A DNA stretch of 64,000 nucleotides, from positions 1 to 64,000 of the forward strand of contig CALIBN010000007.1 in NCBI GenBank assembly GCA_938045545.1, in the 5' to 3' direction. This document shows, piece after piece, positions 12,690 to 47,002 of the stretch. Positions within the stretch are counted from its first letter, which is position 1, and every line of letters starts with the position of its first letter. The DNA is from an uncultured archaeon. GTDB taxonomy: Archaea; Thermoproteota; EX4484-205; JAAOZP01. A model generated the notes under the pieces. The model did not search any database and was not told the DNA's origin. It worked only from the letters and a program-made list of their open reading frames with translations. The translations under genes were made by a program, and so were the position numbers.

Positions 12690-13748
12690 CTACGTCGTGC
12701 GCTCAAGGCCTTCGCTCAACCATTTCGCCATGAATTCATACGATTTCCTCCCGCTTATCTCGTGTCTCCCCTCGAAGAAGTCTGCGTCCAGTCTATCCTC
12801 GGCTTTCAGCAGGGCATAGGCCCTGCGTATTCGCTCATAGGCGTACTTCGCGGCCTCGATTGGGAATATTGGGTCCTTAGAACCGCTCTCTATCAGCAGG
12901 GGCCTCGGCGCGATTAGGGCCGCCACATCGTACATCTCGCCGTATTTGAGTATCCCCGGTACGTAATTGTCTATGCAGTGGTCCATCGCCAGTATGCTAC
13001 TTCTGAAGGTGTTTATGTAGCCGCTTATAACTACGACCCTAACCCTGTCGTCTAGCGCTGCAGTGAAAAGCGTCGTGGTACCGCCTCCCGATATCCCCAT
13101 CATGCCTATCCTTGAATGGTCGACATCGTCTCTAGTAAAAAGGTAATCCACCACCCTCATAGCATCCCATACCCTTCGGCCTATGGTCGTCGTCCCCATC
13201 ATCAACGCCCATAGGGAAAGCATTTTACACGAGCTCTGCTCGTTTCCCTTCGCGATATCCTCCTTGGTCCTGCGCTCCCCGAAGCCGCTCTGTTCAGGCA
13301 CTATTACGAGAAGCCCGCGTTTAACTAGCTCCAGCGCGAAATCCTTCTGGTATCCTCTGGATGAAGGATCAATACGATCGGTTCCATCCTCCCAAATGCC
13401 CACTAAGTCATCCTTGCCGTAACCGTGGCCGTGCATGGCCACTGCGGCGGGGAGAGGTTTTTCACGCTTCTCCGGGATCAAAACGTACGCAGGTATTGAG
13501 GTGTAAGGATCGCTTCTCAGGACTACTTTTTCCCTAACGTAGCCGGGGTACTGCTTCCTATCTACCGTTTGAGGGGAAATCTCAGAACGTTCGAAGAAAT
13601 CGAGCCCAATAAGCTCAGCAAGCTTTTCCCTGAAGCCTAGGTGCCAAGCCTTCCACTCCGAAAGATCTTTAGCATCGAAGGAGAAGACCCTCTTAACCTT
13701 CTCATACTTTTCTAGAAATATCGTTAAAGGATCGTAGTCCGCATTCAT
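12690..13748 (-). CDS. Alpha/beta hydrolase (acetyl-xylan-esterase-like / abhydrolase_7-like)
   Basis: PAYVLIP, HGHG, GFGER, GISGGG nucleophile elbow, HCIDNYVPG, IAPRPLL, DPIFP, GRH. Confidence 0.8.
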   Translation of the reverse strand: MNADYDPLTIFLEKYEKVKRVFSFDAKDLSEWKAWHLGFREKLAELIGLDFFERSEISPQTVDRKQYPGYVREKVVLRSDPYTSIPAYVLIPEKREKPLPAAVAMHGHGYGKDDLVGIWEDGTDRIDPSSRGYQKDFALELVKRGLLVIVPEQSGFGERRTKEDIAKGNEQSSCKMLSLWALMMGTTTIGRRVWDAMRVVDYLFTRDDVDHSRIGMMGISGGGTTTLFTAALDDRVRVVVISGYINTFRSSILAMDHCIDNYVPGILKYGEMYDVAALIAPRPLLIESGSKDPIFPIEAAKYAYERIRRAYALLKAEDRLDADFFEGRHEISGRKSYEFMAKWLSEGLERTT

Positions 13749-20659: not shown

Positions 20660-21307
20660 ATGTCTGAGGTAAGTCTACTTACGAAACTTAAGGATGCTAT
20701 AGTTAACCTGGATTTCGACGGCTCTAAGCATCTAGCGCAGGAGGCCCTTGCGAAAGGAATACCGCCCAACGAGATCATCACTAAAGCAATAAGCTCCGCC
20801 ATGGAGGAGGTTGGCAGAAAGTTCGAGGCTTCAGAATACTTTCTGTCAGAGCTGATAGTTGCAGGTGAAATAGGAAAGGAAATATCGCAAATGTTGCAAC
20901 CATACATGAAGGACGCGGAAATTAAGAAGATAGGCAAGGTTGTAATAGGAACCGTTAAGGGGGATCTTCACGACATCGGGAAGAATATTTTCGGAATGAT
21001 GCTTGAAGCAGCGGGATTCGAAGTCATAGACTTGGGTAACGATGTTCCGGCTGAAGCTTTCGTAGAGGCTGTGAAGAACCATAAGCCTGACATCATGGGC
21101 ATGTCAGCTCTTCTAACTGTTACGATGGTTGAGATGGAGAACGTGATAAAAGAGCTTAAGAAAGCCGGGTTACGGGAAAAGGTTAAAGTAATAATAGGCG
21201 GGGCTCCGATAACAGAGGAGTATGCCAAGAGGATAGGCGCCGACGGCTATGGTAAGGATGCTGTAGTCGGTGTAGATATTTGCAAGGCTTGGATAGGCAA
21301 GAAGTAA
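20660..21307 (+). CDS. mtaC: Methyltransferase corrinoid protein (MtaC/MtbC-like)
   Basis: B12-binding cap; GTVKGDLHDIGKN (DxHxxG), SALLT, IIGGAP, IGADGY. Confidence 0.9.
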   Translation: MSEVSLLTKLKDAIVNLDFDGSKHLAQEALAKGIPPNEIITKAISSAMEEVGRKFEASEYFLSELIVAGEIGKEISQMLQPYMKDAEIKKIGKVVIGTVKGDLHDIGKNIFGMMLEAAGFEVIDLGNDVPAEAFVEAVKNHKPDIMGMSALLTVTMVEMENVIKELKKAGLREKVKVIIGGAPITEEYAKRIGADGYGKDAVVGVDICKAWIGKK

Positions 21308-21343
21308 AAAAAGTAAGCACTGTTAAATCAGAGGGCAAGCGTA

Positions 21344-22711
21344 ATGGTTTTATTCAGTAAGCTAGAGATAGAAAAGCCTTCTGAATTAATCTTCGGGTCG
21401 GCTAAACACCCTTTGAATTATGGTTTCGGGCTTAATGTTGGAAAAGGGGAAGTAATTCCTGAAGTAAAATTTTTCCCAAGGGTTTTTTCGGATAAAGATC
21501 CTGAAGGGTTTAAAACTGAGGTTCAGACTATAACGCGAGATATACTTGACAGGGCTGTTGAGCTCGGCATTCCATCCCTTCAAATAGAGACTGAGCTGAC
21601 CTTCATGGAGACTAAGAACCCTAGGCTCGCTGCTGAAATAGCAAGTCTCCAAAAATGGTTGATGGAAAAATATTTTGACGAACATGGTATAAAACTCGGC
21701 TTCAGGGTTACGGTTGCCGATATAAGGGATTTCCGGGAGGGCTTGAGAACAACCGCAAACTATAATCTCATGATGGAAACTTTCGACGCTGTTTCTTCCA
21801 ACGGTGCAGACGTTCTGTCGATAGAGTCTGAAGGCGGTAAAGACGTTTTTAACCACAGCATAATTAGACAGGATATTGAAGGAATAGTCTTTTCAATCCT
21901 ATTGGCATCTTTGGACATGGGTTTTATTTGGAAGGACATTGTTAACGTTGCAAGGAGAAACGGCTGTATAGCGGGTGGGGATACTGCTTGCGCTATTGCG
22001 AACACGGCGATGAAGCTTGCAGGCGGTGTGAAATCAATGTCCTTGCCTCACACGCTCGCTGCAATAGTGAGAGCCATGTCGGCAGCCAGGTCCCTCGTCG
22101 CTTATGAGCAGGGTGCAACAGGCCCGGGGAAGGACTGCGGCTATGAAAACGTGATTCTGAAAGCAATAACCGGGTTCCCAATGTCGATGGAGGGTAAGAG
22201 TAGTGCTTGCGCGCACTCCAGTCTAATGGGGAATATTGCTTCCGCATGCTGCGATCTCTGGTCTAACGAGCAGGTTGAAAACCTAATGCTTTTCGGAGGG
22301 TCAGCTCCACAGGTTTTCCTGGAAATACTTCACTACGATTGCAAGCTGATGAATAGGGCAATAATGCTTGGGAAAGCTTTAGAGCTCAGAGACATGCTTG
22401 TCTTGTCGGATAAGTATGACGACCCTCAGGCCTTGGTTCTCTCCCCCGATGTGGCTATCGAGGTTGCAAACGCGATAGTCTCCGAGTATGGTGACTACTA
22501 TAGGAGAGTTAAGTCTGCATGCCGGAAAATAGTCGAGATACTTGAGAGCTCGTCGCCCCTACGCCTAAGCCACGCGGAGGCCCGCTTCCTGTCTCATGTT
22601 AAAAACATTATTGATTCTCTTCCGGATGATGGGGAAACGTTTAGAGAGCAGATGTGTAAGACTTTTACCGGGAAGGTGCCAACCTTCCGGGAGAAGGATT
22701 ACTGGCCCTAA
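21344..22711 (+). CDS. mtaB: Methanol:corrinoid methyltransferase MtaB family
   Basis: LIFGSAKHP, G.VIPE, SIESEGGK, GDTAC..ANTAM, RSLVAYE, GPGKDCGYEN, MEGKSSACAHSS.MGN, DLWSNE, YDC.LMN, DPQALVL. Confidence 0.9.
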   Translation: MVLFSKLEIEKPSELIFGSAKHPLNYGFGLNVGKGEVIPEVKFFPRVFSDKDPEGFKTEVQTITRDILDRAVELGIPSLQIETELTFMETKNPRLAAEIASLQKWLMEKYFDEHGIKLGFRVTVADIRDFREGLRTTANYNLMMETFDAVSSNGADVLSIESEGGKDVFNHSIIRQDIEGIVFSILLASLDMGFIWKDIVNVARRNGCIAGGDTACAIANTAMKLAGGVKSMSLPHTLAAIVRAMSAARSLVAYEQGATGPGKDCGYENVILKAITGFPMSMEGKSSACAHSSLMGNIASACCDLWSNEQVENLMLFGGSAPQVFLEILHYDCKLMNRAIMLGKALELRDMLVLSDKYDDPQALVLSPDVAIEVANAIVSEYGDYYRRVKSACRKIVEILESSSPLRLSHAEARFLSHVKNIIDSLPDDGETFREQMCKTFTGKVPTFREKDYWP

Positions 22712-24555
22712 TCCAATAAAGGAGCCTTCATAGCTATGGCTTTCATCACTCTTGGGAACATGTCCGTTTTCTTATGGGGGAATTGTGTTGCATCAATAAA
22801 TTCGCTTTGAAACCCGTTGATCGTATTTAAATCTATAGCCCTCACTTTCCTGGCCAAGATTTCAGCCTCTTCCTTGACCTTTCTGGAAAGAAGACTCATT
22901 GCTGCACCTTGGCCCGAACCATTTCCTATCTGTACGATCTTGCTTAAAGGAAGCTCAGGGATCATGCCGACTATCATCGCAGACCTTGGGTCAATATAGT
23001 TTCCAAAGGCTCCTGCAATATATACTTTGGATATCTCGCTCAAGCTTACCCCTCCAATTCTTAGGAGAAGCAGGCATGCAGTAAATATGGCTGCCTTAGC
23101 AAGTTGAAATCTTCTAATGTCTGTCTGCGTTATGCAGATTCTTCGGCCCTCCCTGTTAACCGCTAACACGAAGGCCTTATCCCCATCGATATTCACAATC
23201 CTCGGAGTATTTATGTCGGCAATCCTTCCCTTCTGGTCTAAAACTCCGGCTATAAGCATCCATGCTATCGCGTCGACAACTCCGGAGCCGCATATTCCCC
23301 TCGGATCCGCGTCGCCTATCGTCTTATAGTAAACGTCAAAGTTTTCCACGTTAATCGAAACCGATTCTATCGCGCCATTCATCCCTCTCATACCGTTGGA
23401 AAGCCCAGCTCCTTCAACAGCTGGTCCCGCCGCCGTGGAGGACGCGAGCATCAGGTCCCCCGCTTTCAAGACGACTTCACCATTTGTTCCAAGATCTATA
23501 AGCAGGGACTTCTCATCCTGCTCATGCATTCCTGAAACAAGTATGTCTGCAACCACGTCTCCACCAACGTAGCCGCTGATCAAGGGGAAAGTGTAGCCGA
23601 TCGCAGAATCGTTAACTCTAAGGCCTATTTCTCTAGCCTTGAAGCGAAGGCTAGACCTGAAAGGCGGCACGTATGGTGCTGATGCTATCGCCGAAACCTC
23701 CGCTCCATATAGGAGGCTGGTCATAACCGTGTTCCCGGCGAAGGATAATTCGTAAACGTCGAATGGAGAGCATTTCGCTTCATCAGCCGCATCCTGAATC
23801 AATTTGTTTATAGTTGCCACTACTTTGCCTTGAAGTTCCTCTAGGTTCTTGCCTCCTTTCACAGCGTAGGTTATTCTAGATATCACGTCGTCACCATACG
23901 CTATCTGACCGTTGTAATCCGATTTTACGGAGACGATTCGCCCGGTTTTCAGGCTGATCAGGTAGGCGACAACCGTGGTGGTGCCTACGTCTACAGCAAC
24001 ACCGTAAAAATCCTGGTCACGCCGCGGTCTAACATCTAGGATTTCACCATCATGTAGAATCGCCTCCAAGTCCCATTTTAATTCCCGCAGTTTACCGGGT
24101 AGCTTCTTTAAAAGCAGGCCGTCGATGGATTTCGCGTTCAATGCTTGTAGGAGGCGTTCAGCATCCGACCTCTGGTCGGTGAGCGAGGGAGCATAAATCT
24201 TAACGTTTACACTTCTCGTTGCAGGGTAAAACCCGAAATCCTTGACGCGTCCCCATTCCAGTATCTTGCCCCTGGTCTGCCTTGAGGACTGAGGAACCTT
24301 AATGACAACGTCACCAATGATTCGCGCCTGACAGGCCAGTCTGAACGATTTCGACATGCTTCTTACTTCTGCTTCCATCGAGGTTGGCTCGGTCAACCCG
24401 CTGCTGAAAACCTCGACGACGCATTTTTTACAAACCCCGCGCCCTCCACAAACGCTTTCAATGTTAACACCCGCTTCCTTAAGCACAGTTAACAGGTTCG
24501 ACCCGTAGGAAGCTTGAACTCTAACGCCTTCAGGCTGAATCGTTACCAGGGGCAT
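22708..24555 (-). CDS. ATP-dependent corrinoid reductive activator (RACo-type; N-terminal [2Fe-2S] + ASKHA/DUF4445)
   Basis: CGGRGVCKKC...RLACQ; DVGTTTV, GDDVISRI, GNTVM, YVGGD, DLGTNGE, AAGPA.EG, GICGSG, QLAKAA, AGAFG. Confidence 0.9.
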   Translation of the reverse strand: MPLVTIQPEGVRVQASYGSNLLTVLKEAGVNIESVCGGRGVCKKCVVEVFSSGLTEPTSMEAEVRSMSKSFRLACQARIIGDVVIKVPQSSRQTRGKILEWGRVKDFGFYPATRSVNVKIYAPSLTDQRSDAERLLQALNAKSIDGLLLKKLPGKLRELKWDLEAILHDGEILDVRPRRDQDFYGVAVDVGTTTVVAYLISLKTGRIVSVKSDYNGQIAYGDDVISRITYAVKGGKNLEELQGKVVATINKLIQDAADEAKCSPFDVYELSFAGNTVMTSLLYGAEVSAIASAPYVPPFRSSLRFKAREIGLRVNDSAIGYTFPLISGYVGGDVVADILVSGMHEQDEKSLLIDLGTNGEVVLKAGDLMLASSTAAGPAVEGAGLSNGMRGMNGAIESVSINVENFDVYYKTIGDADPRGICGSGVVDAIAWMLIAGVLDQKGRIADINTPRIVNIDGDKAFVLAVNREGRRICITQTDIRRFQLAKAAIFTACLLLLRIGGVSLSEISKVYIAGAFGNYIDPRSAMIVGMIPELPLSKIVQIGNGSGQGAAMSLLSRKVKEEAEILARKVRAIDLNTINGFQSEFIDATQFPHKKTDMFPRVMKAIAMKAPLLD

Positions 24556-24580
24556 GGTGAAGCTCCAATCAAATAGTAAA

Positions 24581-24600
24581 TAAACTTTAAAAAAAGTTTA
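24581..24600. promoter_or_regulatory. Inverted repeat TAAACTTT-N4-AAAGTTTA in the divergent RACo/URO-D promoter
   Basis: Perfect 8-bp arms overlapping a TTTAAA box; AT-rich, so it may be chance. Confidence 0.3.
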
Positions 24601-24665
24601 GCCTTTAACAACGCTGCTTACTGTTCGGCGAAAAATTTTTATTTAATCGCTTTAAACCAGTCCTA

Positions 24666-25781
24666 ATGTTCTTTAAAGAGGATTGGGCTGAGGCTAAGGA
24701 ACGGCTCTCAGCCTGGTGGGAAAAAGATGCTTTAGACAGACCAATTATACAAGTTTACGCTCCTCGAAGCAGCCCAAAGTATGCTTCTGAAGAGGATTTG
24801 AAGTTCAACTATGATCACTGGGGGTTTCCCAGAAACATTAAGGATCCTGCCGCTATAAGTGGAAACATAAAGGGTTTTCGTAGGCAGTGCGCGGAAACAT
24901 ATTACGGGGGGGAAGCCTATCCGAACCTTTGGGTAAACCTGGGCGCCGGTGTTCTCGGGGCATACTTGGGTGCAGAACCGGTCCTGGAGAGTGAAACAGT
25001 ATGGTTTGGAGCGCAGAGAAATAATGCGCTTGGGAAAAGCTGGGAGGAGTTGCGCCAATTAGAGTTTGATCACAGTAACGAGTGGTGGATATTTACGAAG
25101 AGAATAACTGAGGCTGCTTCTGAAACCTTGGCGGGATACAGCATTGTCGGCATGACCGACCTGGGAGGAATACTGGACGTCGCCGCCTCGCTGCGAGGCG
25201 CCGAAAACCTTATTGTCGACCTTACTAGGAATCCTCGAGATGTTAAATCACTATCTTCGAAAATCATAGACTACTGGCACGCCTGTTACGACGAGTTGGA
25301 CAGGATTATAAGAAGGAGAATAGAGGGTACTTCCGCCTGGATGGGCATATGGTGTCCTGAAAGATGGTACCCGATACAGTGTGATTTCGCCTTCATGCTT
25401 TCTCCGAGGCTTTTCGACGAGTTCGTTCTGCCTCATGTTAAAGAGCAGTGTGAAAGGCTTGACCGGGCGATATACCATCTCGACGGCCCTGGGGAAATAC
25501 CGCATCTAGACTCTCTGCTTAAAGTTGAGAGGCTGGATGGCATCCAGTGGGTACCGGGTGCGGGGGAAGAGCAACAGGGGAACGACTGTGGATCCCCAAA
25601 ATGGATGCCTCTTTACAAGAAGATCTTGGAAGCCGGGAAGCTTCTTGTGTTGTACATGCCCAGGGAAAAGGTGATTCCGATGCTTAAGGCGCTTGGCTCT
25701 AAGAAAGTATTAATCCAGACTTTCTGCATCAGTGAAGCAGAAGCTAAAAAGCTGGTGGTTGAGGCTGAAAACTCGCTGTGA
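24666..25781 (+). CDS. URO-D/MtaA-CmuA superfamily protein (putative corrinoid methyltransferase)
   Basis: W...R..AWW, LG.G...AYLG, LRG.E.L..DL, QCDF..MLSP..F.EF..P, YHLDGP, IQWVPG. Confidence 0.72.
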   Translation: MFFKEDWAEAKERLSAWWEKDALDRPIIQVYAPRSSPKYASEEDLKFNYDHWGFPRNIKDPAAISGNIKGFRRQCAETYYGGEAYPNLWVNLGAGVLGAYLGAEPVLESETVWFGAQRNNALGKSWEELRQLEFDHSNEWWIFTKRITEAASETLAGYSIVGMTDLGGILDVAASLRGAENLIVDLTRNPRDVKSLSSKIIDYWHACYDELDRIIRRRIEGTSAWMGIWCPERWYPIQCDFAFMLSPRLFDEFVLPHVKEQCERLDRAIYHLDGPGEIPHLDSLLKVERLDGIQWVPGAGEEQQGNDCGSPKWMPLYKKILEAGKLLVLYMPREKVIPMLKALGSKKVLIQTFCISEAEAKKLVVEAENSL

Positions 25782-25859: not shown

Positions 25860-27662
25860 TTATTTTGCTTTTATTTCAGGAGCTGCGCCGAACTGAAGCT
25901 CGTATAGCTTAGCATACGCACCACCCTTCTTCATAAGCTCCTCATGAGTCCCCTCCTCAACTATTCTTCCGTTCTCTAAGAACAATATTCTATGTGCAAG
26001 CTTAACTGTGGAAAGCCTGTGGGCAATTATTATGCATGTTCTTCCCTTCATAAGCTTAACCATGGCTTTCTGGAGGAGCGACTCAGTGTAGGAGTCCAAG
26101 CTGCTCGTCGCCTCATCCAGTATGAGGATCCTCGGATCCTTAAGCATGGCTCTTGCGAAGCTTATGAGCTGTCTTTCCCCGAGCGAAAGGTTTCCCCCTC
26201 CGGGGGACACTACTGTCTCATACTTCTGCGGCATCCTGTCTATCAATTCGTCTAAGCCAAGTTCCGAAGCCACTCTCTTAACATCTTCATCGGAAGCCTC
26301 CGTGTTGCCCAGCCTTATGTTCTCCAGAATAGTTCCGTTAAACAGGACTGGTTCCTGCGGCACCAGAGCCACCTGTTTCCTGAGGGATTTAAAGGAGAAT
26401 TCCTTAACATTATAATCGTCTATAAGAACTTCGCCTGACTTGGGGTCATAAAGCCTCAGTATGAGGTTCGTTAAGGTTGTTTTACCTGCTCCTGTTGGGC
26501 CAACTACAGCAACTATCTCACCCGGATCGACTTGTAGGCTCAACCCTTGGAAAACAGTGTTCCCATCGTAGTCGAAGTGAACATTCTTCAACTCTATTCT
26601 ACCGGCTTTTATCTCGATCCATCTCGCTTCTTTAGACTCTACAACACTGGGCTTCACCTGTAGGAAAAGGTAGACTCTTTCAGCAGCCGCTAAGGCCGCC
26701 TGCAACGTGCTGTAGAAGGTTGTTAGAGTGATTATGGGCCTGTAGAACATTTCAGCATATCCGTAGAATGCGATTAGAATGCCGATGCTGATTTCCCCGG
26801 AGACCACTAGGCTTCCCCCGTAAAGTATCAATATCACATAGGAAAGAGTTCTAACAGCGTCGAGCGAAGGCCTAATCATCGCGAAAACTATCCTCGCCCT
26901 AAGGTTTGTCCTCATCGTTTCAGCGCTAAGCTTGTCGAAAGAAGCGATGTCGACGTTTCTTCTCTCCGCGAATGATTGGGAGACCCTTGAACCCGAGACG
27001 CTTTGCTCAACGCTGCTAGTCAACTCGCTAAGCTTTTCCCTGCTTTGCCTGTATGCCTGTCTTGTTTTGATTGCGAAATACCTTGAGAGAAACAGCATTA
27101 AAGGCACTACGGTGAGTGTAGCTAGGCTTAGCCCCACGTGTAGGGTGAACATGACGTACAGTGAGCCGAGGAGTGTTGCCGAGCCTATCATTGCTTCTAT
27201 CGTTCCCGAGGTTGTTACTTCTCCGATAGAACTTATGTCGTTTATTATAAGTGAAATGATTTTACCGGTTCTCTCAACGTTAACGTGCGCGATATCCATT
27301 TCCTCCATGTGTTTAAAGACGGTGCTTCTCATGCTGTAAAGAAGCCTCTGGTTTATCCTGCCAGTCAAGTTGCCTCTGGCGAAACCTAAAAACCATCCTC
27401 CTGCAGCAATCCCCACCAGCACGAGGACATATTTCATCAAGGCGTCTGGATTACCCTGCATAATGCCTTCGTCTATCAGAAGCCTGCTAACGTATGGGCT
27501 CACTACATTAACCCCTATTGAGGCCAGTGCTACGATCACAAGCATGATTGCCTGGAGCTTCATAGGGGTTAACCACCGTAGGAGCCACGCGACGAGCTTT
27601 CTGGACGCTATTTCCCTAGGCTTCCCCTCGGCCTCAGCAGCTTGACGGAAATGCCAACCCAT
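25860..27662 (-). CDS. Heterodimeric ABC exporter subunit B (TM288-like)
   Basis: TMD+NBD; GPTGAGKT, degenerate signature LSLGERQ, ILDEATS, IAHRL. Confidence 0.9.
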   Translation of the reverse strand: MGWHFRQAAEAEGKPREIASRKLVAWLLRWLTPMKLQAIMLVIVALASIGVNVVSPYVSRLLIDEGIMQGNPDALMKYVLVLVGIAAGGWFLGFARGNLTGRINQRLLYSMRSTVFKHMEEMDIAHVNVERTGKIISLIINDISSIGEVTTSGTIEAMIGSATLLGSLYVMFTLHVGLSLATLTVVPLMLFLSRYFAIKTRQAYRQSREKLSELTSSVEQSVSGSRVSQSFAERRNVDIASFDKLSAETMRTNLRARIVFAMIRPSLDAVRTLSYVILILYGGSLVVSGEISIGILIAFYGYAEMFYRPIITLTTFYSTLQAALAAAERVYLFLQVKPSVVESKEARWIEIKAGRIELKNVHFDYDGNTVFQGLSLQVDPGEIVAVVGPTGAGKTTLTNLILRLYDPKSGEVLIDDYNVKEFSFKSLRKQVALVPQEPVLFNGTILENIRLGNTEASDEDVKRVASELGLDELIDRMPQKYETVVSPGGGNLSLGERQLISFARAMLKDPRILILDEATSSLDSYTESLLQKAMVKLMKGRTCIIIAHRLSTVKLAHRILFLENGRIVEEGTHEELMKKGGAYAKLYELQFGAAPEIKAK

Positions 27663-27663
27663 C

Positions 27664-29424
27664 CTATGGCTTCACCTCCTGAAAAGCGTACTGTGAAACA
27701 TACAGCTTAGCGTAGACTCCTCCTTTACTCATGAGTTCCTCATGAGTCCCGTCCTCAACCACCTTGCCGTCTTCAATAACAATTATTCTTTCGCTGAGTT
27801 TAAGCGTTGAAAGCCTCTGAGTGACTATGAAGACGGTCTTGTTCTTAACGAGTTCCCTCAGCGATTCGTATATTTCCTTTTCTGTCTCAACATCCACGCT
27901 TGAAGTTGAATCGTCCAGAATCAGTATTGAAGGGTTTACGAGGAGGGCTCGGGCAATAGCCAGCCTCTGTCTCTGCCCTCCTGAAAGAGTAACTCCTCTC
28001 TCGCCTATAACAGTATCATATCCTTTCGGAAGGCTGGTTATGAAGTCGTGTATTCTCGCCGCCTTCGCCGCCCTCTCTATTTCGTCCCGCGTAGCGTCAG
28101 GCTTACCGTAAGCAATGTTCTCCCTAATAGTTGTGGGGAATAGGAAAACGTCTTGATGAACTATGCCTATGTTCTTCCTGAGCGAGCTTATCTTTACTTC
28201 TCTAATATCCACGCCATCTATCATGATGCAGCCCTCCTGAGGATCGTAAAACCTTGGAATCAGCTTGATCACAGTGCTTTTCCCGGAGCCGGTTGCCCCC
28301 ACTAAAGCCACTTTCTCCCCTGGCTTAACTGTAAAACTCATCCCCTTAAGTATCGGCTTATCCTTATCGTAGCCGAACACCACATCCTTAAAACATACTT
28401 CTCCTCTAACGTTTTTCAGCTCTATTGCACCAGGCTTCTCCTTAACCTCGGGCTCAGTATCGAGGACTTCAAATATTCTTCGCGCTGACACCATTGCCTC
28501 CGCGTATCTCGACAATACGAATCCTATCGACATTATCGGCCAGACGAGCATGCCTAGGTACATCGTGAAGGTGACGAGCTGCCCCAGGCTGATCTCGCCC
28601 ATAATAGCCTGGAAGCCGCCATACCAGTATACAACTGCAGAGCCGACTCCGATTATCAACCCTAGCGAAGGCCATGTTAGCGAGCTAAGGAGAACGCTTC
28701 TCATGCCTATGCTGAATATTTCCTTGTTTTTCACCTCAAACCTTTTAAACATCTCTTCTTCTGCGCCCAGAGTCTTCAAAACCTTAAATCCTGAAACGGT
28801 TTCCTGAATCATCGCGCTCATCCCGCTTGTCTCCATCCAAATCCTTTCGAACAGGGGTCTTACAAAGCGGTTGAAAGATAGGGAAACAATGCCTATGAAA
28901 GGCGTTATTGCCAGCGCTATTAATGCTAGGCTTAAGTTGGTTGTTAAAAGTATTGTGACGACTATTATCAGAATGGCTACGGAGCCTATGATGTTTGGAA
29001 GCGCGAAACCGAGTAGTCTACCTATGTTCTCCGTGTCCCTTGTAACCCTGGTTATTATTTGCCCGGAGTCAACCCTGTCGTAGAAGCTGTACGATAAATC
29101 CTGAAGATGGCGGTAAATGCTTATTCTAATCCTGTAGACTATTCTCTGAGCTAAGGATTCACTTAAATACTCGTTCAGGAAAGATATCCCACCGGCTAAA
29201 AGCGTCAGGACCATTATTGCCGCCGCGTAAAACCATAATTCTGACAATGCTTTTACGATAGTTATGTCGATAACCCTCCCTGCAATGATTGGGCTAACTA
29301 TGTTCACTAAGGCTCCTAGTATGATCATGGTTAATGTTAATGGTAGCAGGGTTTTTTCCTGCCTAATGTATCCGAGAATTCTCAGGAAGGGATGTCGGCT
29401 ACTACTGGGCATTTTTGAAACCAC
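27664..29424 (-). CDS. Heterodimeric ABC exporter subunit A (TM287-like)
   Basis: GATGSGKS, LSGGQRQ, degenerate Walker B ILDDS and switch VTQR. Confidence 0.9.
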   Translation of the reverse strand: MVSKMPSSSRHPFLRILGYIRQEKTLLPLTLTMIILGALVNIVSPIIAGRVIDITIVKALSELWFYAAAIMVLTLLAGGISFLNEYLSESLAQRIVYRIRISIYRHLQDLSYSFYDRVDSGQIITRVTRDTENIGRLLGFALPNIIGSVAILIIVVTILLTTNLSLALIALAITPFIGIVSLSFNRFVRPLFERIWMETSGMSAMIQETVSGFKVLKTLGAEEEMFKRFEVKNKEIFSIGMRSVLLSSLTWPSLGLIIGVGSAVVYWYGGFQAIMGEISLGQLVTFTMYLGMLVWPIMSIGFVLSRYAEAMVSARRIFEVLDTEPEVKEKPGAIELKNVRGEVCFKDVVFGYDKDKPILKGMSFTVKPGEKVALVGATGSGKSTVIKLIPRFYDPQEGCIMIDGVDIREVKISSLRKNIGIVHQDVFLFPTTIRENIAYGKPDATRDEIERAAKAARIHDFITSLPKGYDTVIGERGVTLSGGQRQRLAIARALLVNPSILILDDSTSSVDVETEKEIYESLRELVKNKTVFIVTQRLSTLKLSERIIVIEDGKVVEDGTHEELMSKGGVYAKLYVSQYAFQEVKP

Positions 29425-29524
29425 TTCGTGTAAAACTATTTAAAAGTTACTGAGACGCTGGTTACGTGCACTATGTTTTGATTGAAGGTGTGCCAGTGAC
29501 GCATGACGAGGGTTTTAAAGGATT

Positions 29525-30040
29525 TTAAGTCACCGTTTCAAGAAGCACCCTGCTCCGCTCATCGACTTTATTAATGTCCTCAACTATGTAAACATTATCA
29601 TTAATATCGATAATCACGATCTTCTCCCCAGATCTGCTTACGCTTCTCCTTCCCCTTGTTCTGAACTCCCTCAATCCTCTATCCGTCTCAACATGCCATA
29701 TGAACTCGTCTCCACTTGTCTCCAACTTCCTAACTCTTCGGATCACAGGCATGAAGTAGAGCTTCCCTAAAACTTCTTCAAGAGTTCTCCGCGAAAAACC
29801 GTCCATCTTCCTGTAGTCCTCTACTACGCATATCTCGTTTCCCTGAGCATCGGTGAATATCAGGAAATACGGGTTGCTTATGGGGAAAGGCTTCTTAGGA
29901 ATCACCTCGAGAAATTCCCCGTTGCTTCCCACTATCTTCACCGTGTTCGCCCTATCCCCCTTGAAGACCCTTATCTGCTCCGCGTTCACGACCCATGTCT
30001 TGCTCAGAAAGCTTTCAAGCAACGGCAACCTGTTTCTCAC
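29525..30040 (-). CDS. DUF1854 domain protein
   Basis: FPISNP...GNEI...L...YFMP.I..V......WHVETDRG..F...IID....Y..D...D.RSR; overlaps the 3' end of the upstream ABC gene. Confidence 0.75.
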   Translation of the reverse strand: MRNRLPLLESFLSKTWVVNAEQIRVFKGDRANTVKIVGSNGEFLEVIPKKPFPISNPYFLIFTDAQGNEICVVEDYRKMDGFSRRTLEEVLGKLYFMPVIRRVRKLETSGDEFIWHVETDRGLREFRTRGRRSVSRSGEKIVIIDINDNVYIVEDINKVDERSRVLLETVT

Positions 30041-32192
30041 CCTCCGTAAACTGCGCCCTATATATTTTAGCGTATAACCCGTTCAGCCTTAAAAGCTCGT
30101 CATGGGTCCCGATTTCAACGATCCTGCCCTTATCCATCACCACTATCTTATTCGATCTTTGAAGGGTTGAGAGCCTATGTGCAATCACTATCGTTGTTCT
30201 CTCCTTAGAAATATTGTCTAAGGCCTGCTGTATCTGCCTCTCTGCCAACGTGTCCACCGAAGAAGTCGCCTCGTCCATTATTAGGATCTTGGGCTCAAGG
30301 ATTATTGCCCTAGCTATAGCGATCCTCTGCCTCTCTCCTCCTGAAAGCCTAGATCCCCTCTCTCCAACAGGTGAATCATACGCTAAGGGGAGGTTCATTA
30401 TTGTCTCATGAATATTCGCAGCCTTCGCAGCCGCTATCACCTTCTTCAAATCCACCTTCTCAAGACCGTATGTTATGTTGAACAACACGGAGTTGTCGAA
30501 TAGAAACGGGTCTTGAGCGACTATCCCTATGCTCTTCCTCAATCTTTCCAGCTTGATTTTCCTGATGTCGACACCGTCTATAAGAATCCTGCCCTCGTTC
30601 ACGTCGTAAAACCTTAACAGTAGTTTAGTCAGAGTCGTCTTCCCTGAGCCGCTTTGCCCGACTATTCCAACCATCTCTCCTTTCCTGATTTCAAGGTTTA
30701 TGTTTTTCAAAACAGGGATGAAGGGTTCATACCCGAAGGTAACATTTTCGAACTTTATGTCCCCCATTATCTCGAAATCCTTAGCGTCAGGAGCGTCTTT
30801 CACAGCAGGGTCAATCCTCAGTATTTCAAGGATTCGTTCTCCAGAAGTTATTGCCTGCTGCAATGGTTCGGCAAGGTTTGTCACTGTTTGAATCGGCCCG
30901 TAGAACATCCACATGTAGCTAACGAACGCTACAAGCGTGCCTGGAGATATGTCTCCGCTGATGACGTGTAATCCGCCGACATACCAAACTATCGCAGCTC
31001 CTGCGGAGCTTACGAAGCCCAAGATTGGGAAAAAGCCAAGATGTAGCCTCGTTATGTCAAGATTCGCCCTCACCACTTCATTCATTCTTTCAGTAAACCT
31101 ATTAACTTCACCTTTTTCCCTAGCAAAAGACTTCACAACAGATATTCCAGGTATCGTGTCTACGAGTAGAGAACTAACGTCCGCCCATTTTCTCCAGGCT
31201 TTATGGTAGACAAGCCTAGCTTTAGACCTGAATCGTGGGAGTCCAAGCATTATGAGCGGTAGAGGCAATAGTGCGAAAAGAGACAACCTATAGTCCATTG
31301 TGAATATTATGATGCCTATTCCAATTATTGAGAGAACGTTAATTATCAGGCTTGGTATTCCCCACACTAAGAACCATTGGACTCTCCCAATATCATCAGT
31401 AATCCTTGAAATAACTCTGCCAGTGCTCATCTTGTCGTAGAAAGACATTGAGAGCTCCTGCACGTGGCTATACAGGTCTCTCCTCATTTCATACACCAGT
31501 TTCTGGCTTAGCAGTGAAAGCGAATAGTTTTGAAGTATTCCAAGCAGAGTGTTCAACGCATAAATGGTTATTAAGAGGATAGTCAGGTTTAGCAGCGTGG
31601 CCTCCTGTTTCTGAGCGGCTATCTGGTCTATGAGTGTCCTAAGCAGGGAAGGAGGAACTAGGTTTAAGCCTGTTATAACGACGGATAGGGTTAAACCAGT
31701 TAAGACCAGGTACCAGTGAGGCTTGAGATAGGACATGAGCCATATTATGGCGTTCCTCTTACTCTTCCCATTGTTTTCAAGGTAGAGTTTGAATTCTATT
31801 TCCCGGGGGTCCCTATACTGGAGAAGCGCGTTTATCACGCCAGCCGCATGCCTGAACTCGCCTACTTTATCTCTTGAAAACCTTGCCAAGGAAAACTCTT
31901 TACCATCAACAATTAGGATGAGCTCGCTGTTTCCAAGATAATCGTTAAAGACTACCTGCGTAGCCTTCTTGATTTCCAGTTCTACAATTTTATTCCCATA
32001 TTCCACGTCTATCTTCAACACCCGTTCGTTCGTAACTATTAAGAGGTATGTTGAGAAACTACCGTCTTCACCAAGGTCGCCTTTCGCAACTGATAAAACC
32101 ATCTCCCCTGGCTTAAGCGATTTTTCAATCAGCATTCTTTCTTTCTCGCTCAGCTTTTCCAGCAGGATTCTATGGGCTTCGTCATCCCCCAA
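30015..32192 (-). CDS. ABC transporter ATP-binding/permease with N-terminal PH-like extension (DUF1854-associated type)
   Basis: DL..DG.F....L.VT..R N-terminal domain, TMD, GQSGSGKT, LSGGERQ, IMDEATS, IAHRL. Start TTG 32192 inferred from TATA at about 32225. Confidence 0.88.
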   Translation of the reverse strand: MGDDEAHRILLEKLSEKERMLIEKSLKPGEMVLSVAKGDLGEDGSFSTYLLIVTNERVLKIDVEYGNKIVELEIKKATQVVFNDYLGNSELILIVDGKEFSLARFSRDKVGEFRHAAGVINALLQYRDPREIEFKLYLENNGKSKRNAIIWLMSYLKPHWYLVLTGLTLSVVITGLNLVPPSLLRTLIDQIAAQKQEATLLNLTILLITIYALNTLLGILQNYSLSLLSQKLVYEMRRDLYSHVQELSMSFYDKMSTGRVISRITDDIGRVQWFLVWGIPSLIINVLSIIGIGIIIFTMDYRLSLFALLPLPLIMLGLPRFRSKARLVYHKAWRKWADVSSLLVDTIPGISVVKSFAREKGEVNRFTERMNEVVRANLDITRLHLGFFPILGFVSSAGAAIVWYVGGLHVISGDISPGTLVAFVSYMWMFYGPIQTVTNLAEPLQQAITSGERILEILRIDPAVKDAPDAKDFEIMGDIKFENVTFGYEPFIPVLKNINLEIRKGEMVGIVGQSGSGKTTLTKLLLRFYDVNEGRILIDGVDIRKIKLERLRKSIGIVAQDPFLFDNSVLFNITYGLEKVDLKKVIAAAKAANIHETIMNLPLAYDSPVGERGSRLSGGERQRIAIARAIILEPKILIMDEATSSVDTLAERQIQQALDNISKERTTIVIAHRLSTLQRSNKIVVMDKGRIVEIGTHDELLRLNGLYAKIYRAQFTEGEKQVAVA

Positions 32193-32274
32193 CGTCAGAA
32201 GCGTGCACCGGAACGATTCTCTATTTAAGGCTTTTTGATTTACTGATGTAAAAAGTTGTTTGGGGACTACATAT

Positions 32275-32288
32275 AGAATCTTTATATA
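32275..32288 (+). promoter_or_regulatory. Archaeal BRE/TATA promoter (TTTATATA) for mscS-like gene
   Basis: AGAATCTTTATATA, with ATG 26 nt after the box; similar boxes precede many genes here. Confidence 0.6.
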
Positions 32289-32313
32289 ACGCTGATGGAT
32301 AACCACTGGCTAC

Positions 32314-43840: not shown

Positions 43841-44635
43841 TTGCTGAAAATAATTGTTCTCATAAAACAGGTTCCGGATATCGAGAGGGTAAGGTTCGAC
43901 GTAGAAACAGGTAGAATAGATAGGAGTTCAGCGCCGGCAGAGATAAACCCGTTTGACCTGAACGCTCTCGAGGCGGCTGTACAGATTAAGGAGAAGGTTG
44001 GAGGTTTCATCACTGCCATAAGCATGGGTCCGATGCAGGCCCTAAGCTCTCTGAGGGACGCTATGGCTAGGGGTGCTGACGACGCGATCCTTCTTGAAGA
44101 CAGGAGGTTCGCCGGAGCCGATACTTTGGCTACTTCCAACACTCTCGCTGCTGCTATTAGAAAGATCGGGTCCTACGATATTATTCTCTGCGGGGAGAAG
44201 ACTGTCGACGGTGACACCGGGCAGGTTGGCGCAGAGGTTGCGGAGCTTCTTGAAATCCCTCATGTCTACTATGTTTCAAGGATTGTTAACGTTTCTGAAA
44301 ACTCTATTACCGTCGTCTCCGAGATGGAGGATGCTTCCTACGTTTTGGAATCTGGTTTCCCGGTTCTGGTCAGCGTCACGAGGGATGTCAACAAGCCTAG
44401 GCTGCCAACATTGAAGAGCAAGATGAAGGCTATGAAAAGCGAGGTTAAAATATGGCACGCTGAGGACTTGAGCGGTTTTCTAGACCCGGATAAGGCTGGT
44501 TACGCTGGCTCTCCCACATGGGTTCACAAGGTTGTTGTTCAAAGGGAGAAAACCAGGCAGGTTAGGATATACAGACAGGTTGAAGAGGGGATTCAAGAGT
44601 TGATGCGCCTCTTAGAGTCTAAAGGGTTGATTTAA
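43841..44635 (+). CDS. etfB: Electron transfer flavoprotein beta subunit
   Basis: IKQVPD, NPFD..ALE, SMGP, GADTLAT, DGDTGQVG, GSPT.V. Confidence 0.93.
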   Translation: MLKIIVLIKQVPDIERVRFDVETGRIDRSSAPAEINPFDLNALEAAVQIKEKVGGFITAISMGPMQALSSLRDAMARGADDAILLEDRRFAGADTLATSNTLAAAIRKIGSYDIILCGEKTVDGDTGQVGAEVAELLEIPHVYYVSRIVNVSENSITVVSEMEDASYVLESGFPVLVSVTRDVNKPRLPTLKSKMKAMKSEVKIWHAEDLSGFLDPDKAGYAGSPTWVHKVVVQREKTRQVRIYRQVEEGIQELMRLLESKGLI

Positions 44636-44636
44636 A

Positions 44637-45641
44637 ATGGAGGGTAGAGGCTCAGGTGGAAAAGTACTCGTGGTCGCGGAGCTTAGGGGGGAGGCAATAC
44701 ACCCTGTTACTTTCGAGCTTCTCGGAAAAGGCAGGGAGATAGTGGAGCATACTGGTGGGGAACTCTGGAGCGTGGTTTTCGGCAGCAACGTGGATAAGGC
44801 TAAGGCTTCAGAGCTAATATATTACGGTGCAGACCGGGTTTTCCTCTTCAACGACCCTGTTTTTTCCGGTTTAAACACGATGGTTTACGCACACAATCTC
44901 ACTAGGCTTTGTAGGGAGGAGAAGCCGGACGTAATCCTGATAGGGGCAACATGCTTCGGAAGGTCTCTGGGTCCAAGGGTTGCGGCAGCGCTTAAAACGG
45001 GTTTAACAGCAGACTGCATAGATTTAAGGATGGACGAGAACGGTGAGCTGATACAGATCAGGCCAGCATTCGTGGGGAACATCTTAGCGTACATTAAGAC
45101 TAAGACTAAGCCCGTGATGTCTACTGTGCGGTACAAGGTTATGAGGGCGAGGGAGAAGGATGAGAGTAGAAGCGGCCTGATTATCGAAAAAACGGCTGAG
45201 AAACCTTTCCAAGACAGGATCAGGCTTATTGGGGAGGCAATACCCAAGAAGCTTAACATAGCGGATGCTGAAATCATAGTTGCAGGCGGCAGGGGGCTGG
45301 GGTCTGCGGAAGGATTCAAGCTACTGGGGGAGCTCGCCAGCCTGCTTGGAGGAGTTGTGGGCTCAAGCAGGCCGCCTGTGGACGACGGGTGGATAAGGAA
45401 GGAGCATCAAGTCGGCTATAGCGGGAGCATAGTTAAGCCTAGGCTGTATATTGCTTGCGGAATCTCCGGCTCGCCGCAACACCTGTTCGGCATGAAGGAT
45501 GCCGAAACAATAATAGCCATTAACAGCGACCCTTCGGCACCCATATTCAGGGTTGCTGACTACGGTATTGTGGGAGACCTTTATCAGATCATACCCCTTA
45601 TGGTAAAAGAGATAAAAGCCAGGAGGGGCGGCGTAGGTTGA
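44637..45641 (+). CDS. etfA: Electron transfer flavoprotein alpha subunit
   Basis: GLTADC, RPA, AGGRG, SRPPVD, QVGYSG, GISGSPQH, AINSD. Confidence 0.93.
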   Translation: MEGRGSGGKVLVVAELRGEAIHPVTFELLGKGREIVEHTGGELWSVVFGSNVDKAKASELIYYGADRVFLFNDPVFSGLNTMVYAHNLTRLCREEKPDVILIGATCFGRSLGPRVAAALKTGLTADCIDLRMDENGELIQIRPAFVGNILAYIKTKTKPVMSTVRYKVMRAREKDESRSGLIIEKTAEKPFQDRIRLIGEAIPKKLNIADAEIIVAGGRGLGSAEGFKLLGELASLLGGVVGSSRPPVDDGWIRKEHQVGYSGSIVKPRLYIACGISGSPQHLFGMKDAETIIAINSDPSAPIFRVADYGIVGDLYQIIPLMVKEIKARRGGVG

Positions 45642-47002
45642 TGGAGGGTTTAGCAGAGCGACTTGAGGAAATCGTAGGCAGGGAAGCGGTGGTAAGCGGT
45701 AAAGACAAGATTGAGAGCTACTTGTTCGATGAAACGTGCATTCCGGTGAGACCGTCTGCCATATCAGACTGCATAGTGGTTAAGCCTGCTAACAGCGCCG
45801 AGGTTTCGAGAATCCTTAGGCTGGCTAACGAAAAAAGAATTCCAGTATACCCTAGGGGAGGCGGGACAGGCCTTGTGGGAGGGGCTGTGCCGACTAGAAG
45901 CGGGATAATCGTTTCCCTGGAGAGGATGAATCGGATTGAAGTGGACGAGGAAAACCTGATGGCTGTCGCAGAAGCCGGGGCGACACTGGGGGAGCTCCTG
46001 AAGGCTGCTGAGGAAGCAGGCCTCTCTTTCCCGCCGCATCCCGGGGACGAGGGTGCTCAGATAGGCGGCCTCGTGGCCTGCAACGCTGGCGGGGCCAGGG
46101 CGGTTAAGCATGGTGTCATGAGGGGCTTCGTAAAGGGCTTGGAGGTTGTTCTGCCCACCGGGGAAATCGTAACGTTTGGCGGTAGGCTTCTGAAAGACAA
46201 CATGGGCTACAGCTTGATGCACTTGATCATAGGAAGCGAGGGCACGCTTGGAATTATAACTAAGGTTGTTTTAAGGCTTAACCCTAAAGCGCCATACTCC
46301 TTCACCCTGCTGCTTCCTTTCAACTCGAGGCATGACGCGCTTAATACTGTCCCAAGAATACTGCGCTCCGGGGTGACTCCCCTTGCTCTAGAGTATGTCG
46401 AGAAGGAGTTGATGGAGCTGTCTGCTGAACACTTGGGCGAGAAATGGGTTTTCGAGGGAAAAGTCTTTCTCATAGCAATACTGGCTGGGGAGGAGAACGT
46501 TGTCTACTCTGAGGCTGAAAAGCTTTCCCAGCTATGCGTTGAGAACAACGGGCTTGAGCCTTCAGTTGCAGAGAGAAGGGACGAGCAGGAATCCATTTTG
46601 AGAATAAGAAGCAATATTTACACCGCTCTTAAACGCGACTCCATGGATATTCTTGACACGACGGTTCCACCATCTGCAATTGGAAAGCTGGCGGACGCTA
46701 TCGACACTATTGCCGAGAAATATGGCGCGCACATTCCTGTTTACGGTCATGCTGCAGATGGAAATGTTCACTCCCACGTAATGAAGAGGGATGCTGAGAA
46801 ATATGAGTTGATTAAGAGAGAAATATATGAGACTACGATAGGCCTTGGAGGAACCATCAGCGGTGAACACGGTGTCGGGAAAATACGGGTGAAGGAGCTT
46901 TACCGGTTCACGCATCCGAAGAAAATCGAGCTTATGAAGGCGGTTAAAAGGCTTTTTGACCCGAATAATATTCTAAATCCTTCCACGGTGCTAGAGGTTT
47001 AG
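45638..47002 (+). CDS. FAD-linked 2-hydroxyacid (lactate/glycolate) dehydrogenase, LctD/GlcD-like
   Basis: RGGGTGL.GG, NAGG, GSEGTLG, GHAADGNVH, SGEHGVG, FDPNNILNP. Confidence 0.88.
   Translation: MMEGLAERLEEIVGREAVVSGKDKIESYLFDETCIPVRPSAISDCIVVKPANSAEVSRILRLANEKRIPVYPRGGGTGLVGGAVPTRSGIIVSLERMNRIEVDEENLMAVAEAGATLGELLKAAEEAGLSFPPHPGDEGAQIGGLVACNAGGARAVKHGVMRGFVKGLEVVLPTGEIVTFGGRLLKDNMGYSLMHLIIGSEGTLGIITKVVLRLNPKAPYSFTLLLPFNSRHDALNTVPRILRSGVTPLALEYVEKELMELSAEHLGEKWVFEGKVFLIAILAGEENVVYSEAEKLSQLCVENNGLEPSVAERRDEQESILRIRSNIYTALKRDSMDILDTTVPPSAIGKLADAIDTIAEKYGAHIPVYGHAADGNVHSHVMKRDAEKYELIKREIYETTIGLGGTISGEHGVGKIRVKELYRFTHPKKIELMKAVKRLFDPNNILNPSTVLEV

Follow-up and report, generated by a model that had tools for sequence, protein, structure and literature searches.

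The stretch of DNA analysed here, referred to as the window, comprises 64,000 nucleotides and represents the first 64 kb of contig C7 (CALIBN010000007.1) of the metagenome-assembled genome (MAG; GCA_938045545.1) of a hot-spring archaeon. Between positions 20660 and 25781 it contains an island of four genes, which code for a corrinoid protein of the MtaC type, the methyltransferase MtaB, a RACo-type activase, and a 371-aa protein with the fold of uroporphyrinogen decarboxylase (UroD). According to our analysis this island probably, at roughly 60%, is the single corrinoid methyl-carrier station of the genome, whose unloading enzymes are encoded elsewhere and which operates without the formation of methane. 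MtaB is predicted to move the methyl group of methanol onto the Co(I) of the MtaC-type protein, and the activase would bring carrier that has been oxidised to Co(II) by accident back to Co(I), at the expense of ATP and a low-potential electron. The 371-aa UroD-fold protein would be a second methyltransferase docking on the same carrier, most likely to load it with a methyl group from a substrate other than methanol. Methyl-Co(III) would then be unloaded by enzymes encoded outside the island, namely a core-MetE forming methionine, with methyl-MtaC as presumed donor, an MtrH/MtgA-like enzyme forming methyl-tetrahydrofolate, and two MtaA/CmuA-type zinc methyltransferases that may methylate a thiol. 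The weakest step of this scheme is that about 29 other UroD-like paralogs may share the same carrier.

Composition and genomic background of the island

The gene of the corrinoid protein (20660..21307, plus strand) encodes 215 aa with the Pfam domains B12-binding_2 (PF02607, 59 bits) and B12-binding (PF02310, 105 bits). Its D-x-H-x-x-G loop, GDLHDIGKN, aligns to MttC (PDB 7xcn_M, E 4.5e-51) and to 1y80; 1y80 and 4jgi are further PDB matches, whereas MtaC of Methanosarcina barkeri (2i2x_B) was matched merely with an E value of 2.8e-20. The protein is thus closer to MttC, MtgC and the carriers of O-demethylases than to methanogen MtaC. In NCBIfam the best matches, MtgC and pyl_corrinoid, both remained below cut-off, and the methanogen MtaC equivalogs were missed by a wide margin (106 and 128 bits, with cut-offs of 420 and 450), as was TIGR02370 more narrowly (197 versus 215.3 bits). 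On sequence grounds, it is a methyl carrier of the MtaC/MttC/MtgC type.

The mtaB gene (21344..22711, plus strand; 455 aa) starts 36 nt downstream of mtaC and has the motif GAGGG 8 nt before its ATG. The protein covers model positions 4-459 of the 460 of PF12176 with 582.6 bits (cut-off 25) and aligns to PDB 2i2x_A with an E value of 7.9e-127. Glutamate and two cysteines are kept at chain positions 164, 220 and 269, and Glu164, Cys220 and Cys269 are what we take to be the zinc ligands of M. barkeri MtaB. Its score against the methanogen equivalog NF040651 (560.6 bits) lies under the cut-off of 720, and the protein is assigned to a divergent, non-methanogen branch of MtaB by these comparisons. 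Contigs of bacterial MAGs (loci L043-L058) from Verrucomicrobiota (Opitutales, Puniceicoccaceae), Planctomycetota (Phycisphaeraceae, Brocadiaceae), Nitrospirales and Bacteroidetes carry homologs with 40-44% identity, in most cases next to an mtaC.

The activase gene (22708..24555, minus strand) encodes a protein of 615 aa whose N-terminal part is a [2Fe-2S] ferredoxin domain. All four Pfam domains expected of RACo scored over their cut-offs (Fer2 38.6, RACo_linker 52.8, Raco_middle 193.4 and RACo_C_ter 288.7 bits), and residues 5-603 align to RACo of C. hydrogenoformans (PDB 3zyy, E 2.4e-106) including the four cluster cysteines. The NCBIfam models for AcsV (468.9 bits, cut-off 800) and for the RamA type (TIGR04270, 137 bits, cut-off 500) were not reached. 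Pfam and PDB alignments of all three parts therefore agree with the first-pass annotation, which had recognized a methanol:corrinoid methyl-transfer module with a RACo-type activase.

The four open reading frames (ORFs) lie where they had been placed. The mtaB and activase genes converge and overlap by 4 nt (22708-22711), since the mtaB stop codon TAA occupies 22709-22711 and the activase stop codon TAG positions 22710-22708 of the minus strand, so that the two stops share 2 nt. The activase gene and the gene of the 371-aa protein (24666..25781, plus strand) diverge from an AT-rich spacer of 110 nt (24556..24665), in which A/T runs lie about 25-35 nt ahead of either start codon. These runs are candidate archaeal TATA elements; of the common divergent promoter suggested by the first-pass annotation, the divergence itself holds and the promoter is a prediction. 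In two sequencing runs labelled metatranscriptomic and flagged as 'probably DNA', contigs of relatives with about 90% identity span all 30 bins into which the island was divided.

The MAG comprises 2.03 Mb on 51 contigs and is 92.05% complete and 1.37% contaminated. All counts given for it are matches detected in this assembly, and 'only one' or 'none' is meant as detected; in the following, G000 denotes this genome, and other G numbers denote related or sampled genomes. The closest relative of its MtaB (97% identity) is named 'Candidatus Brockarchaeota archaeon', and a contig of Brockarchaeota GD2_1 with 97-98% identity has the same gene order as the window (GFO, mtaC, mtaB, activase, 371-aa gene, ABC transporter). 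By these affinities, the genome is that of a member or relative of the Brockarchaeota. Two full-length archaeal 16S rRNA genes are present (C36:171-1653 and C16:29805-31302; 1545 and 1445 bits), and this pair with its unequal scores could reflect two operons or a binning artefact.

Both MtaB and the RACo/RamA-type ASKHA activase occur as a single copy in the genome, and of 13 candidates scored for the B12-binding domain PF02310 only one was a match. As had been stated, the window lacks mcr, mtr and a canonical MtaA gene. Genome-wide, MCR_alpha (PF02249) had no match while control methanogens matched, one gene of the MtrH family was found, and two full-length ORFs of the MtaA/CmuA family show that MtaA-family genes are present after all. 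Of the pair MCR and MtaA, which the first-pass annotation had regarded as the mark of an ordinary methanogen, only the latter family is thus represented. A non-methanogenic organism with kinship to the Brockarchaeota, as originally assumed, remains the result, and it fits the main text of De Anda et al. (2021; PMC8065059).

The UroD-fold neighbor and its paralogs

The 371-aa protein had been called URO-D-like from its sequence. In Pfam this label finds no hold, as the match to URO-D (PF01208; E 0.021, 14.3 bits) lies below the cut-off of 23.9; no NCBIfam family was matched, and a profile of 47 family members gave a best match among PDB sequences of only E 0.93. The fold tells otherwise. An AlphaFold2 model built on the 47-sequence alignment (pLDDT 96.3, pTM 0.93) had 27 Foldseek matches in the PDB at E<=0.001, headed by Methanosarcina mazei MtaA (4ay8 and 4ay7; E 1.6e-7 and 4.6e-7, TM 0.60-0.66) and followed by many UROD structures, and hhalign aligned the family with the 26 URO-D paralogs of the genome at 98.4% probability (E 5.7e-15). 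In this alignment H271-L-D273-G corresponds to H-I-C-G of an MtaA-like paralog, and the MtaA zinc motif H-x-C...C is not matched. Because of the Foldseek and hhalign results, 'URO-D-like' is correct at the level of fold and superfamily, with the zinc-thiol motif of MtaA replaced.

This replacement leaves a role in corrinoid-dependent methyl transfer possible, because CdmB, a methyltransferase 1 (MT1) of the same superfamily, has no zinc (PMC13222342). As described in the portion of that source considered here, the UroD superfamily includes, in addition to the zinc-free CdmB, the O-demethylases MtvB, OdmB, VdmB and MtoB and further 'uncharacterised clades' of MT1 enzymes. The cavity of CdmB is lined by aromatic residues, and the 371-aa family, which likewise misses the Cys motif, is rich in tryptophan: seven of its 28 invariant columns are tryptophan and seven more tryptophans are near-invariant, a conservation that fits a sugar or aromatic pocket. 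We lean, somewhat beyond even odds, towards placing the family among the zinc-free or uncharacterised MT1 clades of the superfamily. It is large: 6122 candidates yielded 1871 homologs at E<=0.001, of which nearly all carry no Pfam domain. Look-alikes in the ESM Atlas are clusters of 'hypothetical proteins' from Verrucomicrobiota and Bacillota, one of them with PF01208 on 12% of its members.

The genomic company of the 371-aa gene links it to the carrier. In 401 sampled Thermoproteota genomes (family presence at E<=1e-30), MtaB was found in 47, the 371-aa family in 46 and both in 22. Within 3.5 kb of each other, the two genes occur only in the genus of the window, there in all nine genomes that have both, including G079 with its broken mtaB, and in 10/10 same-genus carriers the 371-aa gene adjoins mtaB or the activase gene. 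The grouping also outlasts the loss of mtaB. In the relative G164 (L082:5485-9732) mtaB is cleanly deleted while mtaC, activase and the 371-aa gene still stand together, and in G079 (L088:5228-9810) a 155-aa remnant of mtaB is accompanied by intact copies of the other three; contigs from the environmental runs X12 and X14 skip most of mtaB as well, joining 21486 to 22430 and 21432 to 22683, respectively, in window coordinates. Genome G103 has mtaC, mtaB, a 371-aa homolog and two URO-D-like genes in one direction with short gaps, and next to the activase gene of G055 and G095 stands a URO-D-like gene from a different clade. Farther afield, a homolog of the 371-aa protein with 32% identity lies 3 kb from mtaB on a Phycisphaeraceae contig; among the bacterial loci, L058 has an activase and a 32%-identical homolog alongside its MtaB. 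Finally, the activase (PF14574) was found in 45 of the 46 genomes with the 371-aa family, the exception being the 82%-complete G178, versus 155 of all 401; as a positive control, it was present in 47/47 MtaB genomes. On account of the islands without mtaB, the arrays in G103, G055 and G095, and the co-occurrence with the activase, the adjacency of the 371-aa gene and the activase gene is probably more than an accident of gene order.

A model of the complex of the 371-aa protein with MtaC points in the same direction. It reached an ipSAE of 0.77, while the best of three controls had 0.39; this mark is attained by 116 of 157 solved complexes and by two of 215 mismatched pairs, counts that are only approximate here, as custom alignments were used. 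The runs share at least 94% of their contacts, the pLDDT of the partners is at least 92, and the interface places the B12 loop face of MtaC (residues 103, 105-106, 109, 151-153 and 182-185) on the mouth of the barrel.

Several observations weigh against the island as the sole methyl-carrier station with a docked UroD-fold partner. Outside the genus, 13 genomes hold both MtaB and the 371-aa family, never within 10 kb, and MtaB is missing from 24 of the 46 family-bearing genomes. Of 20 homolog loci in other genomes, considered to a distance of three genes each way, none (0/20) has MtaA, MtaB, an activase or a corrinoid protein nearby; an MttB-like gene is present at one, and the neighbors otherwise are MFS transporters (five loci), GFO, AP_endonuc_2 or DUF6807 genes, and glycoside hydrolases. 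Conversely, not a single URO-D match was found in G071, which has both MtaBC and the activase. The activase counts overstate their support, because the genomes are related and thus not independent, and activase-bearing genomes may simply share the lifestyle of anaerobic heterotrophs. The complex model may have passed in part through its likeness to solved complexes of TIM barrels with B12 domains, and the family has H-x-D in place of the MtaA zinc motif. The single copies of carrier, MtaB and activase, moreover, are those of an assembly that is incomplete.

A rival explanation is that the 371-aa protein and its paralogs are corrinoid-independent barrel enzymes acting on sugars, for instance decarboxylases or isomerases, and that the adjacency to the activase is accidental and specific to one lineage. 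Restriction of the adjacency to one genus, the sugar and MFS neighbors at the outside loci, and the lack of the zinc-thiol motif agree with this explanation, as does true UROD, a cofactor-free decarboxylase of the same fold. We nevertheless regard it as rather unlikely. Against it speak the retention of the 371-aa gene with mtaC and activase after mtaB was lost in G164 and G079, the co-directional array of G103, and the activase in all but one of the genomes with the family; in addition, the complex model exceeded its control clearly (0.77 versus 0.39), and the top structural match is MtaA and not UROD.

Another explanation, a strong form of that in the first-pass annotation, is that the island mainly takes up methyl groups from glycans, either as methanol released from esters or from O-methyl sugars, in which case the 371-aa protein and its paralogs would be O-methyl-sugar demethylases working on one carrier. 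The genome is indeed rich in such paralogs. URO-D has 32 matches, 28 of them over cut-off, which map to 29 ORFs; apart from the two full-length members of the MtaA/CmuA family, the paralogs (343-476 aa) match just the C-terminal half of the models, and most carry H-[ST]-D-G. Among 135 neighbors within 4.5 kb of URO-D-like genes are 12 GH, CBM or BNR proteins (GH127, two GH4, GH2, two GH38, GH20, GHL6/10, GxGYxYP and CBM96), eight xylose-isomerase-like barrels (AP_endonuc_2), five GFO oxidoreductases and three MFS transporters. Only one corrinoid protein and one activase were found alongside all of these paralogs, and the activase (PF14574) was present in 54 of 56 sampled genomes with at least ten URO-D candidates at first look, the two misses being 70% and 82% complete. 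The invariant tryptophans of the 371-aa family would suit a sugar pocket, an MtaB gene with mtaC beside it is also present on the Verrucomicrobiota and Planctomycetota contigs mentioned above, and O-demethylases of the UroD superfamily are an established kind of enzyme, as far as described in the part of PMC13222342 used here. At C28:11620-12186, a URO-D-like match with three internal TGA and one TAA codon is probably a decayed paralog.

The setting of the island is sugar-catabolic, as previously noted: the window carries a fucosidase, fucose isomerase, FGGY and PfkB kinases, a BNR protein, a DHDPS-type aldolase, GFO, GH2 and a GH106-like gene. The source of the methyl groups is another matter. 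Pectinesterase (PF01095) had no match across the genome, and the Abhydrolase_7 protein at 12690-13748 was rejected as a methanol-releasing esterase, because it matches putative acetyl-xylan esterases and not glucuronoyl or methyl esterases. In the literature searched, no corrinoid methyltransferase was tied to methylated sugars and no UroD-family enzyme was reported to act on them. The paralogs adjoin corrinoid genes only in G103, G055 and G095, and in the 70%-complete G171 15 URO-D matches were found with neither corrinoid protein nor activase. The sugar context of the paralogs is compatible with the removal of methyl ethers and equally with other, corrinoid-free sugar chemistry. Of the original proposal, the methanol module and C1 metabolism without MCR thus stand, while the glycan origin rests on circumstantial neighbors; for want of a methanol-releasing esterase and of literature precedent, and in view of the ambiguous sugar context, we keep it only as a rival explanation and consider it unlikely.

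Downstream of the 371-aa gene (25860-32306) follow genes for three large ABC exporters of 600, 586 and 763 aa and one for a DUF1854 protein; the nearest NCBIfam models of the exporters, below cut-off, include a cyanophycin-associated ABC transporter, and the first exporter gene is kept beside the 371-aa gene at loci of six relatives (L034, L035, L036, L039, L040 and L056). EtfB, EtfA and an FAD-linked oxidase are encoded consecutively at 43841-47002, adjoining the GH106-like rhamnosidase gene. The genes of electron-bifurcating lactate or glycolate dehydrogenase complexes are arranged in this manner.

Candidate enzymes for methyl unloading

We now return to the carrier station and the question of which enzymes would empty it. 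The only MtrH family gene of the genome (C15:24685-25593; PF02007, 287 bits) scored over the cut-off of NF002142 (303.3 versus 287 bits), and under those of TIGR01114 (266.5 versus 271.4) and MtgA (264.8 versus 550). MtgA is the methyl-corrinoid:tetrahydrofolate methyltransferase of the glycine-betaine system. The MtrH-like gene is part of a folate run (C15:22764-30200, corresponding to L079:765-8196) that further encodes FTHFS, a PurN-like formyltransferase, FolD, a 451-aa fusion of 5-formyl-THF cyclo-ligase with an ECF S-component, and a FolC-like Mur ligase. In the relative G143, which has no MtaB, the genes for MtrH, activase and a corrinoid protein are adjacent. De Anda et al. (2021; PMC8065059), in their main text, proposed a tetrahydrofolate (H4F) route for the Brockarchaeota with the second methyl transfer performed by an 'undescribed protein'. 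Because of its likeness to MtgA, its place in the folate run and the adjacency in G143, the MtrH-like gene is the best candidate for this link.

The second candidate is a core-MetE of 307 aa (C34:25445-26368), which consists of Meth_synt_2 only (PF01717, 74.8 bits, cut-off 21). Its residues H189-x-C191, E214 and C281 are invariant across five sequences; the score against the NCBIfam methionine synthase NF002119 (155.8 bits) is below the cut-off of 258. Homologs (E<=1e-20) are present in 19 of the 26 genomes of the order, and in six genomes of two genera (G071, G127, G103, G111, G039 and G055; G111 and G103 judged from coordinates) the gene is an immediate neighbor of mtaC or of the activase gene. 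Thus, G071 and G127 (L089, L095) have a cluster of GH127, ThyA-like, core-MetE, mtaC, mtaB, activase and two PurP genes, and G055 and G039 (L091, L092) one of core-MetE, mtaC, mtaB, ThyA-like and activase genes. The thymidylate-synthase-like gene in or beside the cluster of these four genomes encodes about 280 aa; in the genome studied here, a ThyA-like gene adjoins a URO-D-like gene on C34. That the core-MetE is one part of a split MetE was rejected, as Meth_synt_1 stands beside it at no locus read and is not found in G000. Neither Pterin_bind (PF00809) nor Meth_synt_1 (PF08267) had any match in the genome, and since a MetH-type pterin domain and Meth_synt_1 are both missing, the core-MetE is the sole methionine-synthase candidate found in G000.

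The neighborhoods of the relatives, with core-MetE, ThyA-like and purine genes and the folate cluster, point to an anabolic use of the methyl groups at least as strongly as to a glycan-linked C1 catabolism.

Thirdly, two genes of the MtaA/CmuA family are present, neither of them linked to the carrier gene. The product of C34:28909-29925 scored over the cut-offs of TIGR01463 (243.3 versus 235.4 bits) and NF004889 (266.2 versus 244), aligns to MtaA 4ay7 (E 4.6e-55) with H-I-C-G and P-G-C conserved, and falls short of the MtaA_Meth equivalog (248 bits, cut-off 400). The other gene, C7:101720-102745, is narrowly under its cut-off (241.5 versus 244). The MttB superfamily is represented by two loci. 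At C8:85687-88431 (L080:5873-8432), an in-frame TGA splits the gene into pieces of 100 and 313 aa, and a 410-aa URO-D-like gene adjoins it; the second MttB-like gene, on contig C45, encodes 465 aa and lies beside a GH28-like gene.

The unloading steps have counter-evidence of their own. MtrH was found in only 14 of the 26 genomes of the order, and not in four same-genus genomes with MtaBC and activase (G071, G127, G103 and G023); since G071 also is without URO-D, neither MtrH nor a UroD-fold protein is a universal partner of the carrier. An MTHFR acting on methyl-H4F was not detected in the genome. In the genome studied here, the core-MetE gene on C34 is unlinked to mtaC, and the small genomes showing the core-MetE adjacency possess a split MetE as well; in seven small same-genus genomes a split MetE lies in tandem at a separate site. 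At 80 metagenome loci of core-MetE relatives, none (0/80) has corrinoid genes; only two of these loci reach 55% identity or more, and in both the contig breaks off next to the gene, so that the scan carries no information on the adjacency.

In a more far-reaching form, MtaC would be a hub loaded by MtaB, by the 371-aa family and by many paralogs with methyl groups from methanol and sugar methyl ethers, and the core-MetE would draw the methyl group of methionine directly from it, without methyl-folate, MtrA or CoFeSP. We consider this full scheme doubtful, and distinctly less probable than the carrier station as such.

Very improbable, finally, is that the methyl group reaches coenzyme M through the MtaA-type enzymes and is turned into methane by an MCR missing from the assembly: two MtaA/CmuA-family genes with the zinc motif and the 92% completeness, at which genes can be missing, would allow for it, but MCR_alpha had no match while control methanogens did, the lone MtrH gene stands in a folate cluster outside any mtrA-H operon, ComA of coenzyme M synthesis was not matched genome-wide (a weak argument, as the M. 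acetivorans control was equally unmatched), no mcr was reported in Brockarchaeota MAGs or their source metagenomes in the main text of De Anda et al. (2021; PMC8065059), and MtaA-like proteins are widespread in non-methanogens according to the part of the preprint by Kountz and Balskus consulted here, so that this explanation was rejected.

Relation to known systems and implications

Like the Methanosarcina MtaABC/RamA system (2i2x), the island combines an MtaB homolog with a corrinoid protein gene directly upstream and an ATP-dependent activase, which here is predicted. It differs in that its genome has no detected MCR, its MtaA-type genes are unlinked, the methanogen equivalogs are not reached, and the activase has the [2Fe-2S] N-terminus of the RACo type instead of resembling RamA.

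The core of the first-pass interpretation was already known, as MtaB with a corrinoid protein in the absence of MCR was published in 2021. The main text of De Anda et al. (PMC8065059) reports for the Brockarchaeota mtaB with a colocalized corrinoid gene, MttB homologs and polysaccharide fermentation, and no MCR, tetrahydromethanopterin (H4MPT) branch or CODH/ACS; MtaA is said to be lacking. This main text, to which the comparison refers and which is separate from the Supplementary Discussion, does not contain the terms activase or activat-, uroporphyrinogen, MtrH, pectin or methionine, and the supplementary tables list mtrH (K00584) and COG0407 genes. Compared with the model given there, the present genome adds two MtaA/CmuA-family genes, an MtrH/MtgA-like gene in a folate cluster, the link to core-MetE and the conserved UroD-fold neighbor. 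What is new is that one corrinoid protein, one MtaB and one RACo-type activase were the only ones found in the genome, as a proposed single-carrier hub, together with concrete candidates for the second methyltransferase (MT2), the core-MetE link, and a UroD-fold family apparently tied to the carrier.

Four-part O-demethylase systems (MtvB/OdmB/VdmB/MtoB, CdmBCA), as covered in the portion of PMC13222342 considered, resemble the island in having a carrier, an activase and exchangeable UroD-fold MT1 enzymes. In contrast to them, the UroD-fold gene of the island is far under the Pfam threshold, no MT2 of the PF00809 type was found in the genome, and one carrier would serve many dispersed MT1 enzymes, where theirs is one carrier per operon. 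The Mlp clusters described by Kountz and Balskus, in the part of the preprint consulted, share MtaA-like zinc methyltransferases, a corrinoid protein and a bacterial-type activase, with neither methanogenesis nor an H4folate methylase in the cluster. They have no MtaB, and two to three Mlp genes stand side by side, whereas here the MtaA-like genes are unlinked to the carrier and its neighbor belongs to a far more divergent UroD-fold family.

For the core methionine synthases MesA, MesB and MesC, use of corrinoid-bound methyl groups was predicted, with MtrA and CoFeSP as donors, in hosts that are methanogenic or have the Wood-Ljungdahl pathway (Price et al., 2021; PMC7857596). The core-MetE shares with the Mes proteins, as portrayed in the sections of that paper used here, the Meth_synt_2-only architecture and the H-x-C/E/C motifs. 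Those sections make no mention of MtaB, MtaC or methanol; here, in contrast, the neighbor is MtaC-MtaB, in a lineage reported without CODH/ACS.

In the main text of De Anda et al. (2021; PMC8065059), the Brockarchaeota are described as the first archaea to use methanol with no formation of methane, with the step after the corrinoid protein left to the 'undescribed protein'. The MtrH/MtgA-like, core-MetE and MtaA/CmuA-like genes now provide clonable candidates for this step, and a large unannotated UroD-fold family was found travelling with carrier and activase. If UroD-like expansions of this kind are corrinoid-dependent, they would represent an unrecognised demethylation capacity in many sugar-degrading archaea and bacteria. 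If the core-MetE link is true, methanol entering via MtaBC would be a new methyl source for folate-independent methionine synthases, and if the carrier indeed acts as a hub, these archaea would build their methionine with methyl groups that stem from methanol or are scavenged.

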